A stretch of DNA of 64,000 nucleotides, taken from the NCBI GenBank assembly GCA_964016885.1, contig OZ024741.1:91698001-91762000 (forward strand), given 5' to 3'. Positions 3,796 to 58,734 of this stretch are shown here, piece after piece. This DNA comes from Eledone cirrhosa (lineage: Eukaryota). The translations under genes were made by a program, and so were the position numbers. Position 1 is the first letter of the stretch; each line of letters starts with the position of its first letter. The notes below the pieces were generated by a model that made no database searches, was not told where the DNA came from, and worked only from the letters and a program-made list of their open reading frames with translations.

Positions 3796-3991
3796 GTGTA
3801 TCATTTGTGAAATAACAACTCTTAGTACAAATGCTACGTAAAGCACCCGGCTTGAGCCCCAAAAATTCGGACCCAAAATATATTGTTATAAGGCTCAAAT
3901 ATTCAAATATTCAACTTTGTATTGTACACTGTATATCCAAAAAAGAAAATGGCTATAAATGGAAGAAGAACCCCCCCTCCTCTCCTCTGTC

Positions 3992-4128
3992 TACACTATA
4001 TAGAACAGCCAAACTCACCAACACCAGAAACTAGATACACTATATAGAACAGCCAAACTCACCAACACCAGAAACTAGATACACTATATAGAACAGCCAA
4101 ACTCACCAACACCAGAAACTAGATACAC
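3992..4128. repeat. 3 x 44-bp tandem repeat in the Dong leader
   Basis: TACACTATATAGAACAGCCAAACTCACCAACACCAGAAACTAGA at 3992, 4036 and 4080. Confidence 0.9.
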
Positions 4129-4835
4129 CACCCACCTCATCACCTGTGTACACTAAACACAACAGCCAGATAACGGCAATTTCACCACCACCGCTCACTA
4201 CTGCCATCATTACCACCACTATCCCATCACCGCCGCCACCACTCTTCACTCCTTCACTGACCACCACTGCCTCGGTATCGACATCACCACCACCACTGTC
4301 TCAGTATCGCTACCGCCGCCAGTCTTCCACTTCACCTAGCTGGCTGCTGCCACCACATTATAGAATTCCTACTACTAAAAAATAGGAAGGCATCAAAATA
4401 TATAGATAGACTCAAAAGAAAAAAGAAAAAACAAACAACAAAACCAAAGCAGCACAGCAACAACAGCAAAAAACGAGAAAAACAAACAGAGAAAAACAAA
4501 AACAAAAAAAAAACAAAAAACGTAAAGAAAATAAGAATGAAGAGAGAAGCAGGCGGACGGACAGAGAAGAGGGGGGAAAAACTAAAACTAAAAAAACAAA
4601 AACTAAGTCAGACATTCGAACACTACATTACAATGAAACTTATGCTTATTCATTTTTGGGGCCCTTTCTGCCTGTGTGTTTGTTTGTTTATGTGTGTTCG
4701 TATACAGCGTGGTGATAATGCCACACAAGGGCCAAGTGGAACGGCGAATCCACGGATGGTTATGTAACCATACATTCGCCAATCCTCGATAAGAGTGTTT
4801 AAATATCGAACATAAACAGTTCGAATAACGGTGAA

Positions 4836-7800
4836 ATGGAGACTAGAACGTCATGTGACAGACTCTCACCCAACAGGTGCCCCCTGGCTCAGCAGCAGGA
4901 ACCTGACTGTCAACCAAATACTGCTGATGTTGGAGGAAGAAGAAGAAGGAAAGGGGCCAGAACCAACTGGACGAAAGAATTGAATAGAACTGTTATGCAA
5001 TGTTACCTGAAAAGTAACCCCAAGGAGAGGGGCTACAGGAGACGGATGCATAACATCTGGAACGAGATTGGTCTATTTCAATTAGATGAACAAAAATTGG
5101 CCGGGCAGGCTCGGGTAATAAGAACTAATAGGTGGATAAGCGAGCTGGAACTGGAGGAACTGAGCAGAGAGAATGGCTTGGAGATGGCGGGTGTAGTATG
5201 CCAGACAAGCGAGCCAGTGGGAAATGAAGGTGAAGAGGTCCTGAGAACGGAGAAACCACCCGAAGCAGACAATGATCTGAAGACTGAGATAAATAATACC
5301 TGGAACAGAGATACGGCCACTGAGGAGATGAATGCTGACGGGCTAGGACAAGATTCGGTTGACATCCTAAATTTAGTGGTAGATGAATTGAACAATGATA
5401 GTGGGAGACCTATGAACCTAAGATTTGTAGACAGGAAAAAGTTAAAAGAAACAACAGCTAAGGTAAACAAAGTCATCCCATACCTTGAGACGAGGAGCCT
5501 TCACCAGTGCAACAATATCCTCAAAGCAACAGCAAATACGGTGAGGAAACTACTTGGTATAAAAGCGAGAGGAAACAACAGACAAGAAAGAGCAGAGCCG
5601 TGGTGGAAGAAACGACTGAGTGGTCAAATCGGGGAAATGAGAAATGACATAGGAAAGCTTGAGTCACTACTGAATGGGACACTAAAAAACATAGGCACTA
5701 AAGATAGACTGGAAATAAAGTACAAAACTAGGAGGAAAAAGCTAAATATTATCATAGAGGAACTGAAGCAACGCATTGTAGCAAAGAGTGCAAAAATCAG
5801 GCGATACGAGAACAGAGTCAGTCAGTATAAACAGAACCGCATGTTCGACAACAACCAAAAGATGCTGTTTGGACAGCTTGAGGGGAAAGAAAGAGGCAAC
5901 GACTTGATCCCTGGGGCGGAACAAACTAAAACATTCTGGAGAGGAATATGGGAGCAGGATGTTAGACACAATGCCCAGGCAGGGTGGATTGAGACAGTAC
6001 AGAGGGAGATCGGTGAGCAGGCACAACAACAAACTGATTTGAGTATCACAGTTGAAACTCTTAAGGGGCAGGCCAAAAACCTAACCAACTGGAAATCACC
6101 AGGCCCAGATGGTGTGCAGGGGTATTGGATTAAACATTTAACATCCCTCCACCCGAAGCTGACGGCCATGTTCAATGACTGCTTGGTGTCGGGTGAGGTG
6201 CCAGAGTGGTTGACAAAAGGTACCACAGTTCTGATAATGAAAGACCGAATCAAGGGTAATGATGTTACCAACTATAGACCTATCACATGTCTGTCCGTAA
6301 TGTGGAAACTGTTGACGAGCATTGTGTCTGAGGAAATCTACCATCACCTCCACACAAACAACTTGTTACCGGACGAACAGAAAGGATGCCGAAAGAAGTC
6401 ACGTGGTACAAATGACCAGTTACTTATTGATAATATGGTAATGGGGAATTGCAGGAGGAGACACACTCATCTTGCCATGGGATGGATAGACTACAGAAAG
6501 GCATTTGACATGGTGCCTCATTCTTGGATCACCAAAAGCCTGGAGATCTTCAGGGTGTCAGATAACATCAGACAGTTGCTGGGCAGGAGTATGGGGTACT
6601 GGGAGACAGAGTTGACATCAACTGGAGTATCCTTGGGAAGCGTGAAGATCAAGAGAGGTATCTTCCAGGGAGATAGCCTGTCCCCTCTGTTGTTTGTCCT
6701 TGCCCTGATGCCCTTGACCATTATGCTGCGAAAAGTGAGAGCAGGATACATGTTGGGAAAGGGAGAGCTTACCATCAATCACCTCCTCTTCATGGACGAT
6801 CTTAAGCTCTTCGGGAAAAGTGAGAAGGAGTTGGATGTGCTTGTTGACACTGTCCGTATTTTCAGCAGTGATATATGTATGCAGTTTGGTATTAGTAAAT
6901 GTAGAGTCATTGTGATGAGGAGGGGTAGGTTGAGCAGAAGTAACGGGATCCAGATACCAACAGGTGAGATGATAAAGGAAATTGACTCTGAGGAAAGATA
7001 CAAGTATTTGGGCGTTCTGGAGGCTGATGGCATAAAGAACAAAAAAATGAAGGAATTGTTAAGAACTGAATACATTCGGAGAGTAAGGAGCGTATTGAAG
7101 TCACATCTGAACAGCAGAAATGCCATAAGCGCAGTAAATTCCCGAGCTGTGTCTATTATTAGGTACAGTGCGGGAATTCTGAGATGGAATGTTGCTGAAC
7201 AAAAAGAAATGGATAGGAAGACTAGGAAGCTATTGACTATCTACAACATGTTCCACAAGAGGAGTGATGTCGATAGACTCTACCTAAGGATATCTGAGGG
7301 TGGAAGAGGTCTTATCAGCATAGAGGACTGTGTTCAGATGGAGAAAAACAACCTATACAAATACGTGACCTATAGTAAGGAGCCAATGCTCAGAACTGTA
7401 CTGAAGGAGGGGACAGTAGGCCAGGGGATGTCCAAGGAGGAAATAACATCAAGGAGGAAGAGCAGCCTTAAGGGAAAATCCCTTCATAGTACCTTCTTTG
7501 AGAAAACTGAATTTAGAGATCCACAGACATGGAACTGGTTGAGAAGAGGAGACCTCAAAAAGGCTACAGAAGGAATGCTAATGGCTGCGCAGGAGCAGGC
7601 CCTCAAAACAAAGTGGTTGAAGCACCATATTTACAAGGAGGAGGCTAGCCCACTGTGCAGGATCTGTGGAGAGAGTGAGGAGACTGTGGCTCACATTGTG
7701 TCCGAGTGTAAACACCTAGCCCAGACCCACTATAAGGGATGGAGACACGATGTGATGGACAGGGTGATCCACTGGCACCTGTGCAAAGTAAACAATTTAC

Positions 7801-46887: not shown

Positions 46888-52687
<5,800 letters not shown>

Positions 52688-53993
52688 GGGAAGAAGACGC
52701 ACGAGGTGACGGAGGTCATGAAATCGCTCCCGTAAGTTTTGAATTTTTAACATATTTAAATCATTTGTGAAATAACAACTCTTAGTACAAATGCTACGTA
52801 AAGCACCCGGCTTGAGCCCCAAAAAATTCGGACCCAAAATATATTGTTATAAGGCTCAAATATTCAAATATTCAACTTTGTATTGTACACTGTATATCCA
52901 AAAAAAAATGGCTATAAATGGAAGAAGAAGAACCCCCCCCCCCTCCTCTCCTCTGGCTACACTATATAGGACAGCTAAACTCACCAACACCAGAAACTAG
53001 ATACACCGCCCACCCCATCATCTGTGTACACTAAACACAACAGCATTTTCACCTTCACCGCCACCGCTCACTACGGCCATCATTACCACCACTATCCCAT
53101 CACCGCCGCCACCACCCCTTGACTCCTTCACTGCTGCTGCCACCGCTACAGCACCATCACTACAGTAATACGGCTCAAATATTCAAATATTCAACTTTGT
53201 ATTGTACACTGTATATCCAAAAAAAAATAAAATAAATAAAATGGCTATAAATGGAAGAAGAAGAACCCCCCCCCCCCCCCTCCTCTCCTCTGGCTACACT
53301 ATATAGGACAGCGAAACTCACCAACACCAGAAACTAGATACACCACCCACCCCATCATCTGTGTACACTAAACACAACAGCATTTTCACCTTCACCGCCA
53401 CCGCTCACTACGGCCATCATTACCACCACTATCCCATCACCGCCGCCACCACCCCCTGACTCCTTCACTGCTGCTGCCACCGCTACAGCACCATCACTAC
53501 AGTAATACGGTCGCATCACCGCCACCACTGCCTCGGTATCGACATCACCGCCACCACTGTCTCAGTATCGCCAACGCCGCTAGTCTCTGCTGGCTACCAC
53601 TTCCACATTATAGAATTCCTACTACTAACAAAGAGGAAGGCATCAAAATATATAGATAGACTCAAAAGAAAAAAGAAAAAACAAACAACAAAAGCAGCAC
53701 AGCAACAACAGTAAAAAACGAGAAAAACATAGAAAAACAAAAACAAAAAAAGAAACCCCAAAAACGGAAAGAAAATAAGAATGAAGAGAGAAGCAGGCGG
53801 ACGGACAGAGAAGAGGGGGGAAAAAGTAAAACTTAAAAAACAAAAACTAAGTCAGACATTCGAATACTACATTACAATGAAACTTATGCTTATTCATTTT
53901 TGGGGCCCTTTCTGCCCGTGTGTTTGTTTGTTTATGTGTGTCCGTATACAGCGTGGTGATAATGCCACACAAGGAACTGCCATGAAGTCAAAG
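52688..53993 (+). mobile_element. Dong family 1 copy 5: leader plus a 21-nt remnant of the ORF 3' end
   Basis: Leader nearly identical to 47756-49036, then GGAACTGCCATGAAGTCAAAG (= 8056-8076). Confidence 0.8.
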
Positions 53994-54610
53994 GGAAGAA
54001 GACGCACGAGGTGGTAGAAGGTCATGAAATCGCTCTCGTAAGTTTTTGATTTTTAACATATTTAAATCAATTGTGAAATAACAATTCTTAGTACAAATGT
54101 TGCATAAACCACCGAGACAAGTCCCATAAAATTTCGGATCCATATTATATTGTTATATCGCTCAAATATTCAATTTTGTATTATATATTTTGCATTCAAA
54201 AAAGAAAATGGTTATAAATGGAAGAAAACACCCTTTGTCTACACTATATAGAACAGCCAAATAACAGCAATTTCACCAAAACCAGAAACTTGATACACCA
54301 CCTACCCCATCACACTAAATATAACAGCCAGATAATGGCAATTTCACCACCACCACCATCAATCCCAGCATCATAATAATAATTACTATTATTATTGTCT
54401 CAAGTTTTTTAGAAAATGTTTAATCTCAATTTTACGGGAATATGTCAACACAATATATATTAAACATACGCGACACACACTCATATATACTACATATCAC
54501 AAAACTCAGTAACGTCAAAGCCACCGCCGCCACCACCCCACCCATCCATCATTGCTACCACTATCCCATCACCGGCGCCACCACTCTTTCATTGCTACCA
54601 CCACTATTCC
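53990..54610 (+). repeat. Diverged paralogue of the Dong leader
   Basis: Starts AAAGGGAAGAAGACGCACGAGG; collinear with 47754-48200, with many substitutions and an insert. Confidence 0.75.
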
Positions 54611-54984
54611 CCTGTTAACTTGAGAGAGAAAGGGGAAGGTAGCGGTATCACTAGACAAGGGAGAGGCTAGCAAAAGATATAAATAGATTGACTTAGTGAC
54701 CTGGCCACCGGCCAAACGTCAACATCAACAACTATGGCACTGCTAGCTCACCCCTTCCTCACCAACAATATAAAAATCCCCAGCACCACCACCGACATAG
54801 CCAACAACAATAACAGGCAACTTCAGCAAAAAGTATATTATATTATTGCAATGCACTGGGTGATTGCTGGCCTTGTGCCTGGAGTGGAGACAATTATTAA
54901 TAATTTCATTCTTAAGCCACGCAATGCTCACATTAAGGAACCACTCATGATAATAACAATTTTAAAAAAACAACAAAAAGAAAA

Positions 54985-57900
54985 CCCCGTGACCAAGAAA
55001 TACCGGGATGGCGGCCGGCGGGGAATAGCCGTGTCTCTAGGGGAGAACGACCCCTCTAGTCTTGGTTGACACTCGTTCTAGAAGTGGTAACACGAAATGA
55101 TTACCCCTTGGCGGATAAGGATAAAACGCGACAAAATAAAGTAAATGTCTAATGATAAAATCTCATACCGGATCGGCCGTCACCCGGGTAAAAAAGGGCC
55201 GCGTCCCTCAGAGAGGAACCAGACTGGGGTCGAAAAATCAGCTAATGGTTCAAACCTTCCCATCACTTCGGAGCTGGAGACCTCCCATAACCGGAATACT
55301 CCTACTGTTGGCCCTCCATGCTCACCACCAAGAAATCCAAAGAAAAAGAGAGAAAAATGGTCAAGGGAAGATAATAAAGAAGTCCTTGAGGCTTTCTACA
55401 CTGCCATGTACTACCCATCAAATACATCGAATACAGAACAGACATATATCAACTGGAAAAAGAAACATCCCGAAAACAGAGGCTATATTGACAGTAACAA
55501 ACTAGCCAATATACGAAGAAATATTGTAAGAAAAAAGTTACTAACTGATATAGAAATTGATCAGATCAAGCTATTAGCACAAAGTCAGCGAAGGGAAAAT
55601 GAAACATGTGTCAGTGAAAACGAGGTAAATTGTAACACTTCGAATCCCAGGGTTGGGGCGGAATCACTGGCAACAGAACAAATTAAAGAAAGGATCGAAA
55701 AAGTGGAGGGAGTGCATGCTCAAGATGAAACTCCAAATGAAAATAATGAGATCGTAAATGATAAAGAAATGAATGAGAATGAACTTGCCAACTTGAAGGA
55801 TGAAATTATGATCGAATGGATGAAAATGAAAGAATCTGACATGGGGCAACGAGACACTCTCCCTAAGATCCAGAACTCCAAACAGAACCAAAAGATAATA
55901 CACAAGACTAACATAATTCTCAAAAACATTATCATCACAAACAAACTAAACATTACTGATTTAAATCATCTCTATTATGCATCGGCTAAAGTCACCACTC
56001 ACTTATGTGGAGTGAAGATGAAAAAACAAAGGAATTCCCACAAGAAATCTACTTGGCAAGAGAACATCAATCGCCAAATAAACCTTCTCCGATCTGACAT
56101 AGAAATTTTAACAAACTATAAAGTAGGTGAACATGTTAAACAAACTAAACTTAGAAAATTGAAAAAAAAGTACAGTATAAAATCAACAAGTGACATAGAC
56201 ATGCTGATAGAAATAATCAAACAAAAAGTGTCGGCCAAAGCTGCTCGTATAAGGCGCTTTGAAAAACGATCTAGATTCTATAAGGACAATAATATGTTCA
56301 AAAACAACCAAGGAAACTTCTACAGAAAAATTGGTAAGTCAACAATAACTGCTAAATCAATACCACCCAAGGAGGAAGTGCAAGAATTCTGGGAAAAGAT
56401 CTGGGCCGAAGAAAAAGTTCATAACATACATGCCCCATGGATAGACAGACAAATGAAAGATACAGCTCACCTTGAGGAACAAATATGGGAAAATATAATA
56501 GTCGAACAGTTGCGCTTGGCTCTAAGAAAAACCAGCAAATGGAAATCCCCAGGAAAAGACAAAATACAAAACATTTTGATAAATGCCTTCACAGAGTCTC
56601 ATGAGCTGTTAGCCCAACTTTACAATGAAATAGTTAAGGAGCCAGAAAAGATACCATCATGGCTAGTTAACGGCATTACATTCCTGCTTCCGAAGAATGA
56701 TGAGACAAACAATCCCCAAAATTACAGACCGATAACTTGCTTGACCACAATGTATAAAATGTTAACATCAGTCCTAACTGAATACACATATGACCACCTG
56801 ATAACAAATGACCTATTTCCCATTGAGCAGAAAGGGTGTAAACGAGGCTCATATGGCTGTAAGGATCAGCTTCTGGTTAACAAAATGATACTGGAAGATT
56901 GTCATAATAGACACAAAAATCTATTGATTGCTTGGATAGATTATAAAAAAGCATTCGATAGTTTGCCACACAGTTGGATTGAAAAATGTTTAGAGATTTT
57001 CAAAATATCCCCCGTTGTCAGGAGGTTTTTGTCATTCAGTATGAAGACATGGAAAACGACACTCCTTTTGAATAGTGAAACAAAATCACTGGAAGCTGGA
57101 GAGGTTAATATTTATTGTGGAATTTTTCAGGGTGACTCTTTATCACCGCTTTTATTCTGCATCGCACTTATACCATTAAGTAAAATGCTCAATGAAACAA
57201 AACATGGATATAAAGTCTATGACAAAACCATTAATCACTTGTTCTACATGGATGACCTGAAACTATTTGCAAAAAATGATGAACAATTGCAAGGGCTATT
57301 ATCCACTGTGGAGCAGTTCAGTGATGACATTAAAATGGAGTTTGGACTAGACAAATGCGCCAAAGCAACGTTCACCAGAGGAAAGCTGCTGAAGAGTTCA
57401 GACATTAATCTTGATCGGGGGAACGTGATAAGAGAACTTGATCAAGAAAAAACTTACAAATATCTAGGTGTTTGTGAAGGAGACGGAATCAAGCACTCGA
57501 CAATGAGGGAAAGGATAAGGAAGGAATGTTACCGCAGAGTAAGTGCAATCTTAAGAAGGGAATTGAATGCAAGGAATAGGATCGATGCCATAAACACGCT
57601 TGCCATACCAGTAGTAACCTACAGTTACAATGTCATCAACTGGTCAAGCACAGAGATCCGTAGGCTCGATACAAAAATTCGAAAACTCTTAACCATGCAC
57701 AGAATGCATCACCCTAAGGCAGATATAGATAGAATATATCTCCCTAGGAAAGAAGGGGGACGTGGGTTAATCCAGTTAGACATTGCGTTGAAAACTGCAA
57801 CAATTGGATTATCTACATATCTAAGGGAATCACATGATTGGATGATCAAACTCGTTTTGAAACACGAAAGCATCAAAAGATCATATTCCATTACAAAAGA

Positions 57901-58734
57901 TGCACAAAGATACAGTAATGGACTACAAATTTCAGAAGTCCCATTTACTGCTGAAATGGAAAACACAAGCCAACATAATAAAAAATGGATGCAGCCCATT
58001 ATGCTGTGTATGCAAAAAACAACCAGAGACCATTGACCATATAATTTCAATGTGCAGTCCTATAGCTCCAACCGAATACCTAAACAGGCATGACAGAGCT
58101 GCACAATACATACATTGGATAATGTGTAAGCATTTTGACCTGCCCCATCAAAAGAATTGGTGGGAGCATCAACCACCTCCCATACTTGAAAAAGATCACA
58201 TCTCAATCTTGTGGAAATTTAGCATCCAAACAGACCGAAAAATAGATGCAAATAGACCTGATATAATATTGAAGGACTTCAAAAAGAGGGTATGCCTGCT
58301 AATTGATATGACCGTTCCAATAGACAAGAATGTATCTATAAAAACATTTGAAAAATTGAGCAAGTATAAGGACCTGGAGATAGAAATTGGAAAAATGTGG
58401 AAATTGAGAACTAAAACAATACCAGTGGTTGTAGGCGCTCTGGGAATGATACCTAAGGGGTCTAATGATTACTTATCGCAAATCCCAGGAAACCCGCGTA
58501 TAGGAGAAATACAAAAGATAGTACTAATGGGAACTGCCCATATACTAAGGAAGATTCTGTCAATATAAGTACATCACAAGTCTAAACACTAAAGATGCAT
58601 GTGTGAGTATGTATGTTCTTTCTTGAACATGGCGGACCTTGTTGTCTCTTGAGGTCACTGGTTGTGACTTGGTGATAACTCGTATGAACATAAAGCAAGA
58701 TAAATGCAACTGTAATAATAATAATAATAATAAT
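54985..58734 (+). mobile_element. Dong/R4 family 2, near full length, (TAA)n tail
   Basis: Structured 5'UTR, RT-RLE ORF, 3'UTR, tail at 58713-58734. Confidence 0.9.
55145..58568 (+). pseudogene. Dong family 2 RT-RLE ORF with internal deletion/frameshift near 57975
   Basis: REKWSREDN; QGDSLSPLLF; FYMDDLKL; CCVC..ETIDHIISMC; RHD; RPDIIL. The segment equivalent to LHS..WL..G.L..EG..AAQEQ is missing. Confidence 0.9.

Follow-up and report, generated by a model that had tools for sequence, protein, structure and literature searches.

The window analysed here, a 64,000-nt stretch of Eledone cirrhosa DNA (contig OZ024741.1), is a cluster of non-LTR retrotransposons within (TAA)n in a 3.0-Gb genome. 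The copy under study belongs to a group that we call family 2, and its features, together with the RNA structures predicted around its start codon, are as follows.

53991..58712, + strand: R4/Dong-type single-ORF non-LTR retrotransposon copy, family 2, followed by (TAA)n
53991..55144, + strand: 5' leader of 1154 nt with 13 upstream ATGs
54985..55032, + strand: 5' nested core, with P1 (54985-89 with 55019-23) and P3 (55003-06 with 55015-18) stacked on P1
54991-98 with 55060-67, + strand: closing stem of 8 bp, enclosing the hairpin 55037-59, read from the sequence
55044..55079, + strand: 7-bp pseudoknot of loop 55044-50 with 55073-79, with the subfamily double change A55046G and T55077C
55086..55105, + strand: hairpin 55086-90 with 55101-05, known from sequence only and the least supported part
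55106..55129, + strand: small terminal H-type pseudoknot, 4 bp and 3 bp, with an A-rich third loop
55130..55147, + strand: 15-nt A-rich spacer ending in an in-frame stop, then the ATG
55145..58036, + strand: ORF, 963 aa here, with open frames of 1216 aa in other copies
55168..55201, + strand: first in-ORF pseudoknot (55168-71 with 55184-87; 55174-78 with 55197-201), 23 nt past the A of the ATG
55206..55251, + strand: second in-ORF pseudoknot (55206-12 with 55223-29; 55216-22 with 55245-51)

This copy is broken near 58030: the ORF ends at 58036 and the C-terminal part lies in a different frame. The family-2 ORF carries an RVT_1 domain, and a PD..D..K-type region, whose motif we take to mark the restriction-like endonuclease (RLE) type, is found at the C-terminus in the displaced frame and in homologues. 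A single-ORF RLE design is common to R4/Dong proteins. With (TAA)n at the 3' end of the element as well as at 5' junctions, the host element is an R4/Dong element, that is, a single ORF with reverse transcriptase and a C-terminal restriction-like endonuclease, inserted in (TAA)n, the clade name standing for these features and for the label of the initial annotation rather than for a place in a tree with named references. Family 2 is young and abundant, with 807 exact genomic matches to one 38-mer in its window form. Its 5' end lies near 53991: of 29 other copies, 13 extend as far as 53991-53995 and the rest are truncated at scattered points; the module that the initial annotation singled out (54985-55147) is therefore the last 160 nt of the 1154-nt leader and not the 5' terminus of the element.

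The first ~340 nt of the leader are ~75% alike in families 1 and 2 (53991-54330, 52686-53044, 47754-48113 and 3800-4040), although the two families are only 35% identical in protein, which suggests that this common part is a swapped promoter-like segment. At 53974-53991 the family-2 copy adjoins a family-1 leader broken off within its own structured region, through a 16-nt joint with no TAA run that is possibly a template jump. Several two-ORF APE-RT elements lie head to tail in AAT runs on the minus strand (8987-32501), the Dong elements being on the opposite strand. Seven subfamily-2c leader matches at ~4.9-kb spacing (G000:C2:353612558-353642046) form a tandem element array.

Every complementarity that the initial annotation had named in the module is present in the sequence: CCCCG at 54985-89 with CGGGG at 55019-23; GACCAAGA at 54991-98 with TCTTGGTT at 55060-67, the closing stem; the AGAACGA loop at 55044-50 with TCGTTCT at 55073-79; GGTAA at 55086-90 with TTACC at 55101-05; and CCTT at 55106-09 with AAGG at 55117-20 plus GCG at 55111-13 with CGC at 55127-29, followed by 15 nt to the ATG at 55145. 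The module does not fold better than shuffled sequence when the window sequence is taken alone. Its nested fold has z=+0.51, with 138 of 200 shuffles folding equally well; 59 of 300 shuffles equal its knot-allowing helix score, and 107 of 300 have as many stems of at least 7 bp. The top-scoring genomic copies are near-identical and provide no covariation, and the contigs compared hold only few variants.

Distant homologues were collected by a metagenome scan with an N-terminal alignment, which gave 36 loci; both peptide patterns lie downstream of all modules discussed. Sorted by eye, these loci make up 15 lineages with some leader, two of them on contigs too short for scoring the 5' core. The scorable lineages share 25-37% protein identity with family 2 over 230-285 aa, and a global aligner puts most of them at 50-60% likeness in DNA, a few pairs reaching 61-70%. 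Searches of viral contigs returned one distant element (L031) or none, and a search of genome contigs returned one APE-type contig. Alignments of the upstream parts comprise 5-6 rows, some of them close relatives. Descriptors match 0-4 of 2000 shuffles per leader and, being drawn from the same sequences that they detect, show specificity rather than a probability of discovery.

The leaders of these homologues vary widely in length and content. In L053, L059, L064, L065, L069 and L072 the leader is predicted to form yet another small pseudoknot, around AGGAGAAGG...CTC, which is present one to three times in each. In two groups (L052/L055/L056/L081 and L053/L057/L068/L080) a compact 5' leader follows (TAA)n directly and holds two hairpins and a loop pairing that change in concert; these leaders are likely a separate structured RNA family, loosely core-like. 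A motif around GCGATATAAGC...TGAATA is common to RTE-like leaders upstream of the ORF (L089, L092, L096). Many Dong ORFs start with M-x-T-R or similar (family 1 at 4836-4847, L059, L062, L063, L070 and L091); family 2 does not.

The best-supported structure is a predicted tandem of H-type pseudoknots at 55168-55251, just outside the coordinates of the initial annotation and inside the ORF. Across 18 rows, 88.6% of 414 cells are paired and 14 of 23 pairs show double changes; none of 500 shuffles reaches any of these measures, and slid controls are 27-41% paired. The cell counts are inflated by related rows, yet one pair occurs as five pair types; in the fourth helix, the outer three pairs are weak. 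All 15 Dong lineages aligned possess the module. In the window, as in 11 of the 13 loci for which this was tried, the first knot follows an in-frame AUG at a distance of 23, 26 or 29 nt. The model matches 27 of 29 other loci, 13 of which came from a pattern for the same motif or from likeness and are thus not blind finds. Among these loci are the older Dong family of the genome, where the module is present and the leader is different; decayed RTE-like copies; and L096, an APE-type element where the first knot is in another reading frame and is followed by a weak match to APE that stays under the curated cut-off (E 0.0036). Judging from their broken ORFs, the decayed RTE-like copies of the genome apparently read the first knot in the third frame. 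Double changes within the ORF swap two amino acids together (G/A/D/T/V with P/A/S/T), and these paired swaps, along with the occurrence of the first knot in other frames, argue that the RNA is conserved and not the peptide. The first knot is common to elements whose endonucleases are unrelated, which suggests a host partner.

Upstream of the start codon, the small terminal pseudoknot that the initial annotation had proposed is borne out in homologues. All 42 of 42 cells are paired over six rows and two of seven pairs show double changes, a result that 8 of 500 column shuffles reach, with slid controls at 21-50%. The knot recurs in 4 of 15 distant lineages (L059-61, L062, L063 and L070), and its distance to the AUG is 15 nt in the window, 14 in L059-61, 16 in L062, 13 in L063 and 13 in L070, with unrelated spacer sequences. 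Applied to 590,144 bases, its descriptor gives three other matches, all of low complexity and two of them the same place, and 0-3 of 2000 shuffles per leader also fit it. In its homologue form, the knot was not found in the Eledone cirrhosa genome. An in-frame stop stands directly before the ATG in subfamilies 2a and 2b. Initiation by stop and restart was considered and rejected: subfamily 2b has lost the ATG at 55097, whose 15-codon frame ends immediately upstream of the main ATG, and the L059 and L063 spacers contain no stop.

We propose that the predicted knots bracket the R4/Dong start codon and position the ribosome there, with 54985-55147 as the upstream half of the arrangement, a reading for which we find the scales evenly poised. 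Ribosome positioning fits best because the AUG distances are kept on both sides, the spacer sequence is free, the leader is AUG-rich, and there is sharing across endonuclease classes. The spacings hold among lineages with 31-37% protein identity over ~265 aa. The small ribosomal subunit would arrive at a single-stranded stretch of ~40 nt around the AUG with no need to scan the entire leader. The upstream knot, placed close to the mRNA exit side, would fix the spacing to the P site; the downstream knots would stall the subunit at the AUG, much like the alphavirus DLP, a stable structure 25-40 nt downstream of the AUG that promotes initiation under eIF2 phosphorylation. According to the accessible text of PMC4872096, DLP activity peaks 25-28 nt from the AUG, with natural values of 27-31 nt. 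The in-ORF knots resemble the DLP as a stable structure in coding sequence, 23-29 nt from the AUG as against those 27-31 nt; the DLP, as described there, is a stem-loop that acts while a capped viral mRNA is scanned, whereas here a tandem double pseudoknot is predicted in a retrotransposon. Against positioning, the 23 nt of the window fall short of the 25-nt lower limit given for the Sindbis DLP in the same text (PMC4872096), and a capped transcript from near 54980 would make internal entry unnecessary.

The initial annotation had also likened the module, loosely, to compact viral IRESs, among which those of type 6 bind the ribosome factor-free. In size and knot count this comparison is apt: as portrayed in the accessible text of PMC12221177 and bioRxiv 2024.04.17.590008, the type 6 (dicistrovirus IGR) IRES is likewise compact at 120-190 nt, with three pseudoknots, the small one last. 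The comparison breaks down at the last knot, which does not abut the first codon but is set off by a 13-16-nt spacer of varying frame. In those accounts, type 6 PKI abuts the first, mostly non-AUG codon, whereas here a spacer and an AUG follow, with an in-frame stop in family 2. Set against accessible text descriptions of type 6, where PKIII is nested in PKII and the L1.1 loops are conserved, the nesting order of the module also appears to differ, and Rfam gives it no match at E up to 10.

An unlikely but serious alternative is that the element's own protein has its binding site in the knots, chiefly the two within the ORF, for use in particle assembly, template choice or second-strand cleavage. 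The single-ORF RLE design of R4/Dong proteins and the presence of the in-ORF module in all 15 Dong lineages aligned speak for such a site. So does R2Bm, likewise a single-ORF non-LTR element with structured RNA in its 5' coding region, where a structured 323-nt segment directs second-strand cleavage (PMC2346776, accessible text). Likened by that description and not by sequence, the in-ORF knot differs from R2Bm in occurring also in an APE-type element and at a fixed AUG distance. Protein binding leaves the fixed AUG distances on both sides unexplained, and both the first knot of the APE-type element and the absence of the module from family 1 count against it.

At the other end of the leader module, the initial annotation had drawn a hairpin at 55005-55037, which we scored, as read from its text, in the register 55005-16 with 55028-37. 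This hairpin fares no better than chance, with 61.7% of cells paired in homologues, which is the shuffle level (179 of 500). An alternative of CCGG (55003-06 with 55015-18) and GGC/GCC (55010-12 with 55028-30) has 35 of 35 cells paired and two double changes, which 21 of 500 shuffles reach. P1 (CCCCG/CGGGG), also named at the outset, is retained: all 4 of 4 homologous rows, L070 among them, keep it paired, and its letters differ in L063 and L070, P1 in L063 being tabulated by coordinates rather than by alignment columns. In the core, a conserved GAAAT precedes P3, and the 8-nt loop pairs (55008-12) with 55028-32 after a conserved TA. The cores of L063, L066 and L067 align nearly gap-free with the window, and G55031A in subfamily 2b turns a U-G into a U-A in the alternative reading, keeping the pair. 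The core descriptor detects 3 of 15 distant lineages, its other matches being AT-rich junk. The L073 and L052/L053 lineages have a looser likeness to the core that the descriptor missed, and we count them as misses; a core alignment with the L052/L053 lineages was loose and did not hold. A pattern for homologue-type cores in the genome found only mutated family-2 copies.

The core has the HDV-like order of a nested double pseudoknot (P1, P2, P3, loop pairing, P4, P2'). The HDV consensus has a P1 of 6-7 bp starting from a purine, a 3-bp P3, a pyrimidine-rich L3, an adjacent P1.1 and a J4/2 with a catalytic C. The core, in contrast, has a 5-bp P1, 4-nt linkers that interrupt P2/P3 and P1/loop pairing, a purine-rich loop and no J4/2 strand bearing a catalytic C. 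An HDV descriptor built on this consensus gave no match in 53951-55300 and weak matches in 1 of 23 leaders (L059). That weak HDV-like match (L059:5-330) begins at the 5' end of its element after (TAA)n and has a GC/GC P1.1 variant. An HDV reading on GAC/CCCTCTA/GTC (55047-61) was discarded for want of a second P1.1 pair and a J4/2 consensus, and inspection by eye spoke against a hairpin ribozyme, a hammerhead or a twister, judged by the cores of these ribozymes; the Rfam ribozyme models (twister, hammerhead, pistol, hatchet, hairpin and others) gave no family match. For R2, R4 and Bombyx Dong, elements of the same clade, the accessible text of PMC3774820 and PMC6765202 describes HDV-like ribozymes at the 5' end. 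Whereas those ribozymes lie at 5' ends, the family-2 core sits ~1 kb inside the element in most full-length copies. With the HDV strand order and without the catalytic features, the core might conceivably derive from the 5' ribozyme that other Dong elements carry, no longer cleaving, or stand in its place.

Less likely still than protein binding is that the 5' core sets the RNA 5' end, as an undescribed self-cleaving ribozyme or a 5' exonuclease block. The L063 and L070 elements begin directly at P1 after (TAA)n, and 22 genomic loci begin 0-8 nt from P1, the corresponding counts being 3 for a control anchor and 19 across the 29 nt that follow; the conserved unpaired GAAAT and TA, the HDV strand order and the active HDV-like ribozyme at the Bombyx Dong 5' end (PMC3774820, accessible text) point the same way. 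The junction excess at P1 is mild (2-4-fold), however, and microhomology with TAA can explain it, and the A-rich 28 nt upstream of P1 are also junction-rich (at least 30 minus-strand matches, the P1 ones included again). Efficient cleavage would strip the leader, but 13 of 29 other copies retain the whole 1-kb upstream part. In L066 and L067 the core lies just before the AUG with further leader upstream, and the HDV descriptor and Rfam are both negative.

Between the core and the terminal knot, the loop/downstream pair AGAACGA/TCGTTCT shows a compensating double change in a genomic subfamily, at the very partner positions that the initial annotation had named, which is a single evolutionary event that was searched for after a sighting in L048. 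G at 55046 occurs in 160 genomic matches; among the 100 listed, 89 have C at 55077, 10 keep T (G-U) and one has G. The pair-breaking single change, C alone at 55077, occurs in 10 genomic matches as against 807 of the window form. In 26 copies with G55046, positions 55046 and 55077 are the only fixed differences from the window in 54985-55147, with 55115 (in a loop) polymorphic. Five fixed differences among the three subfamilies fall in the module, and all keep pairs or sit in loops or spacer; the subfamily change at 55098 is in the loop of the GGTAA hairpin. For the closing stem, the only counterpart in homologues is a position-equivalent analogue in L063, read by eye. Compensatory changes back the two 3' pseudoknots and P1, whereas the hairpin 55005-55037 is not kept in homologues.

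The idea of one conserved ~160-nt unit has to be given up, since only 2 of 15 distant lineages combine the core with the terminal knot, and what lies between them varies. Nor is the proposed parallel in element order with 4660-4835 supported: the family-1 leader there matches neither descriptor, and the in-ORF module is absent from family 1, the in-ORF model finding only 55160-55265 and one chance match across the window. Candidate helices can be drawn in the family-1 leader too, one of them long-range, and 44 of 300 shuffles do as well, which is again the shuffle level. Its 4685-4700 segment has ~12 bp of long-range complementarity with 4807-4819, in competition with a local terminal knot. 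The description of the module as structured and possibly undescribed holds, with a multi-pseudoknot structure backed by compensatory changes and no Rfam match at gathering score across the window; around the module, four chance matches appear at E up to 10, and Rfam searches of 20 homologous loci yielded microRNA and CrcZ noise and one tRNA only.

For ribosome positioning, the patchiness of the upstream modules (core in 3, terminal knot in 4 and both in 2 of 15 lineages) is a difficulty, as is family 1, which is equally young and high-copy in the same window and has none of the modules. It is improbable that these are independent, interchangeable modules for stability, export or pausing, stacked by chance with no joint action on the start codon: leaders differ widely, some with repeated copies of another small knot, and the modules do occur separately, but the AUG distances are narrow on both sides. 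Very improbable is chance complementarity in a young repeat, which would fit the shuffle-level scores of the single sequence and the unconserved hairpin 55005-55037 but is largely refuted for the two 3' knots and P1/P3, though not for the closing stem or the GGTAA hairpin, by double changes in distant lineages and in the subfamily, at partner positions named beforehand, and by descriptors that match 0-4 of 2000 shuffles.

A wider form of ribosome positioning, which we regard as doubtful, would be an initiation device common to invertebrate R4/Dong and RTE-type elements, in which a ~40-nt AUG window clamped by two pseudoknots allows cap- and scanning-free loading. The downstream knot would then have moved between two classes and been kept in three frames, and the core would be an HDV-order fold with lost or altered catalysis.

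For the translation of non-LTR RNAs whose leaders are long, AUG-rich or uncapped, the ideas that we found in print build on HDV-like and twister ribozymes. HDV-like ribozymes of non-LTR elements have been proposed to act as IRESs (PMC6765202, accessible text). Twister variants at the 5' end of Perere-3, as presented in the accessible text of PMC8501958, are likewise a multi-pseudoknot structure before a non-LTR ORF, with a 4-bp stem and an 8-nt loop; the module differs in having no Rfam twister match at E up to 10, and the conserved twister residues were not seen. The accessible text of PMC13282606 makes no mention of pseudoknots, ribozymes or UTRs. Searches of Rfam and of the accessible literature, which takes in few subscription papers, found no description of the modules, and the RNA flanking the start codon is apparently undescribed. 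As a short set of covarying knots with fixed AUG distances, it is directly testable. The in-ORF knot explains a puzzling conserved N-terminal peptide as a by-product of selection on RNA, and recoding the 5' end of such ORFs, as in gene-insertion tools, could destroy a functional RNA.
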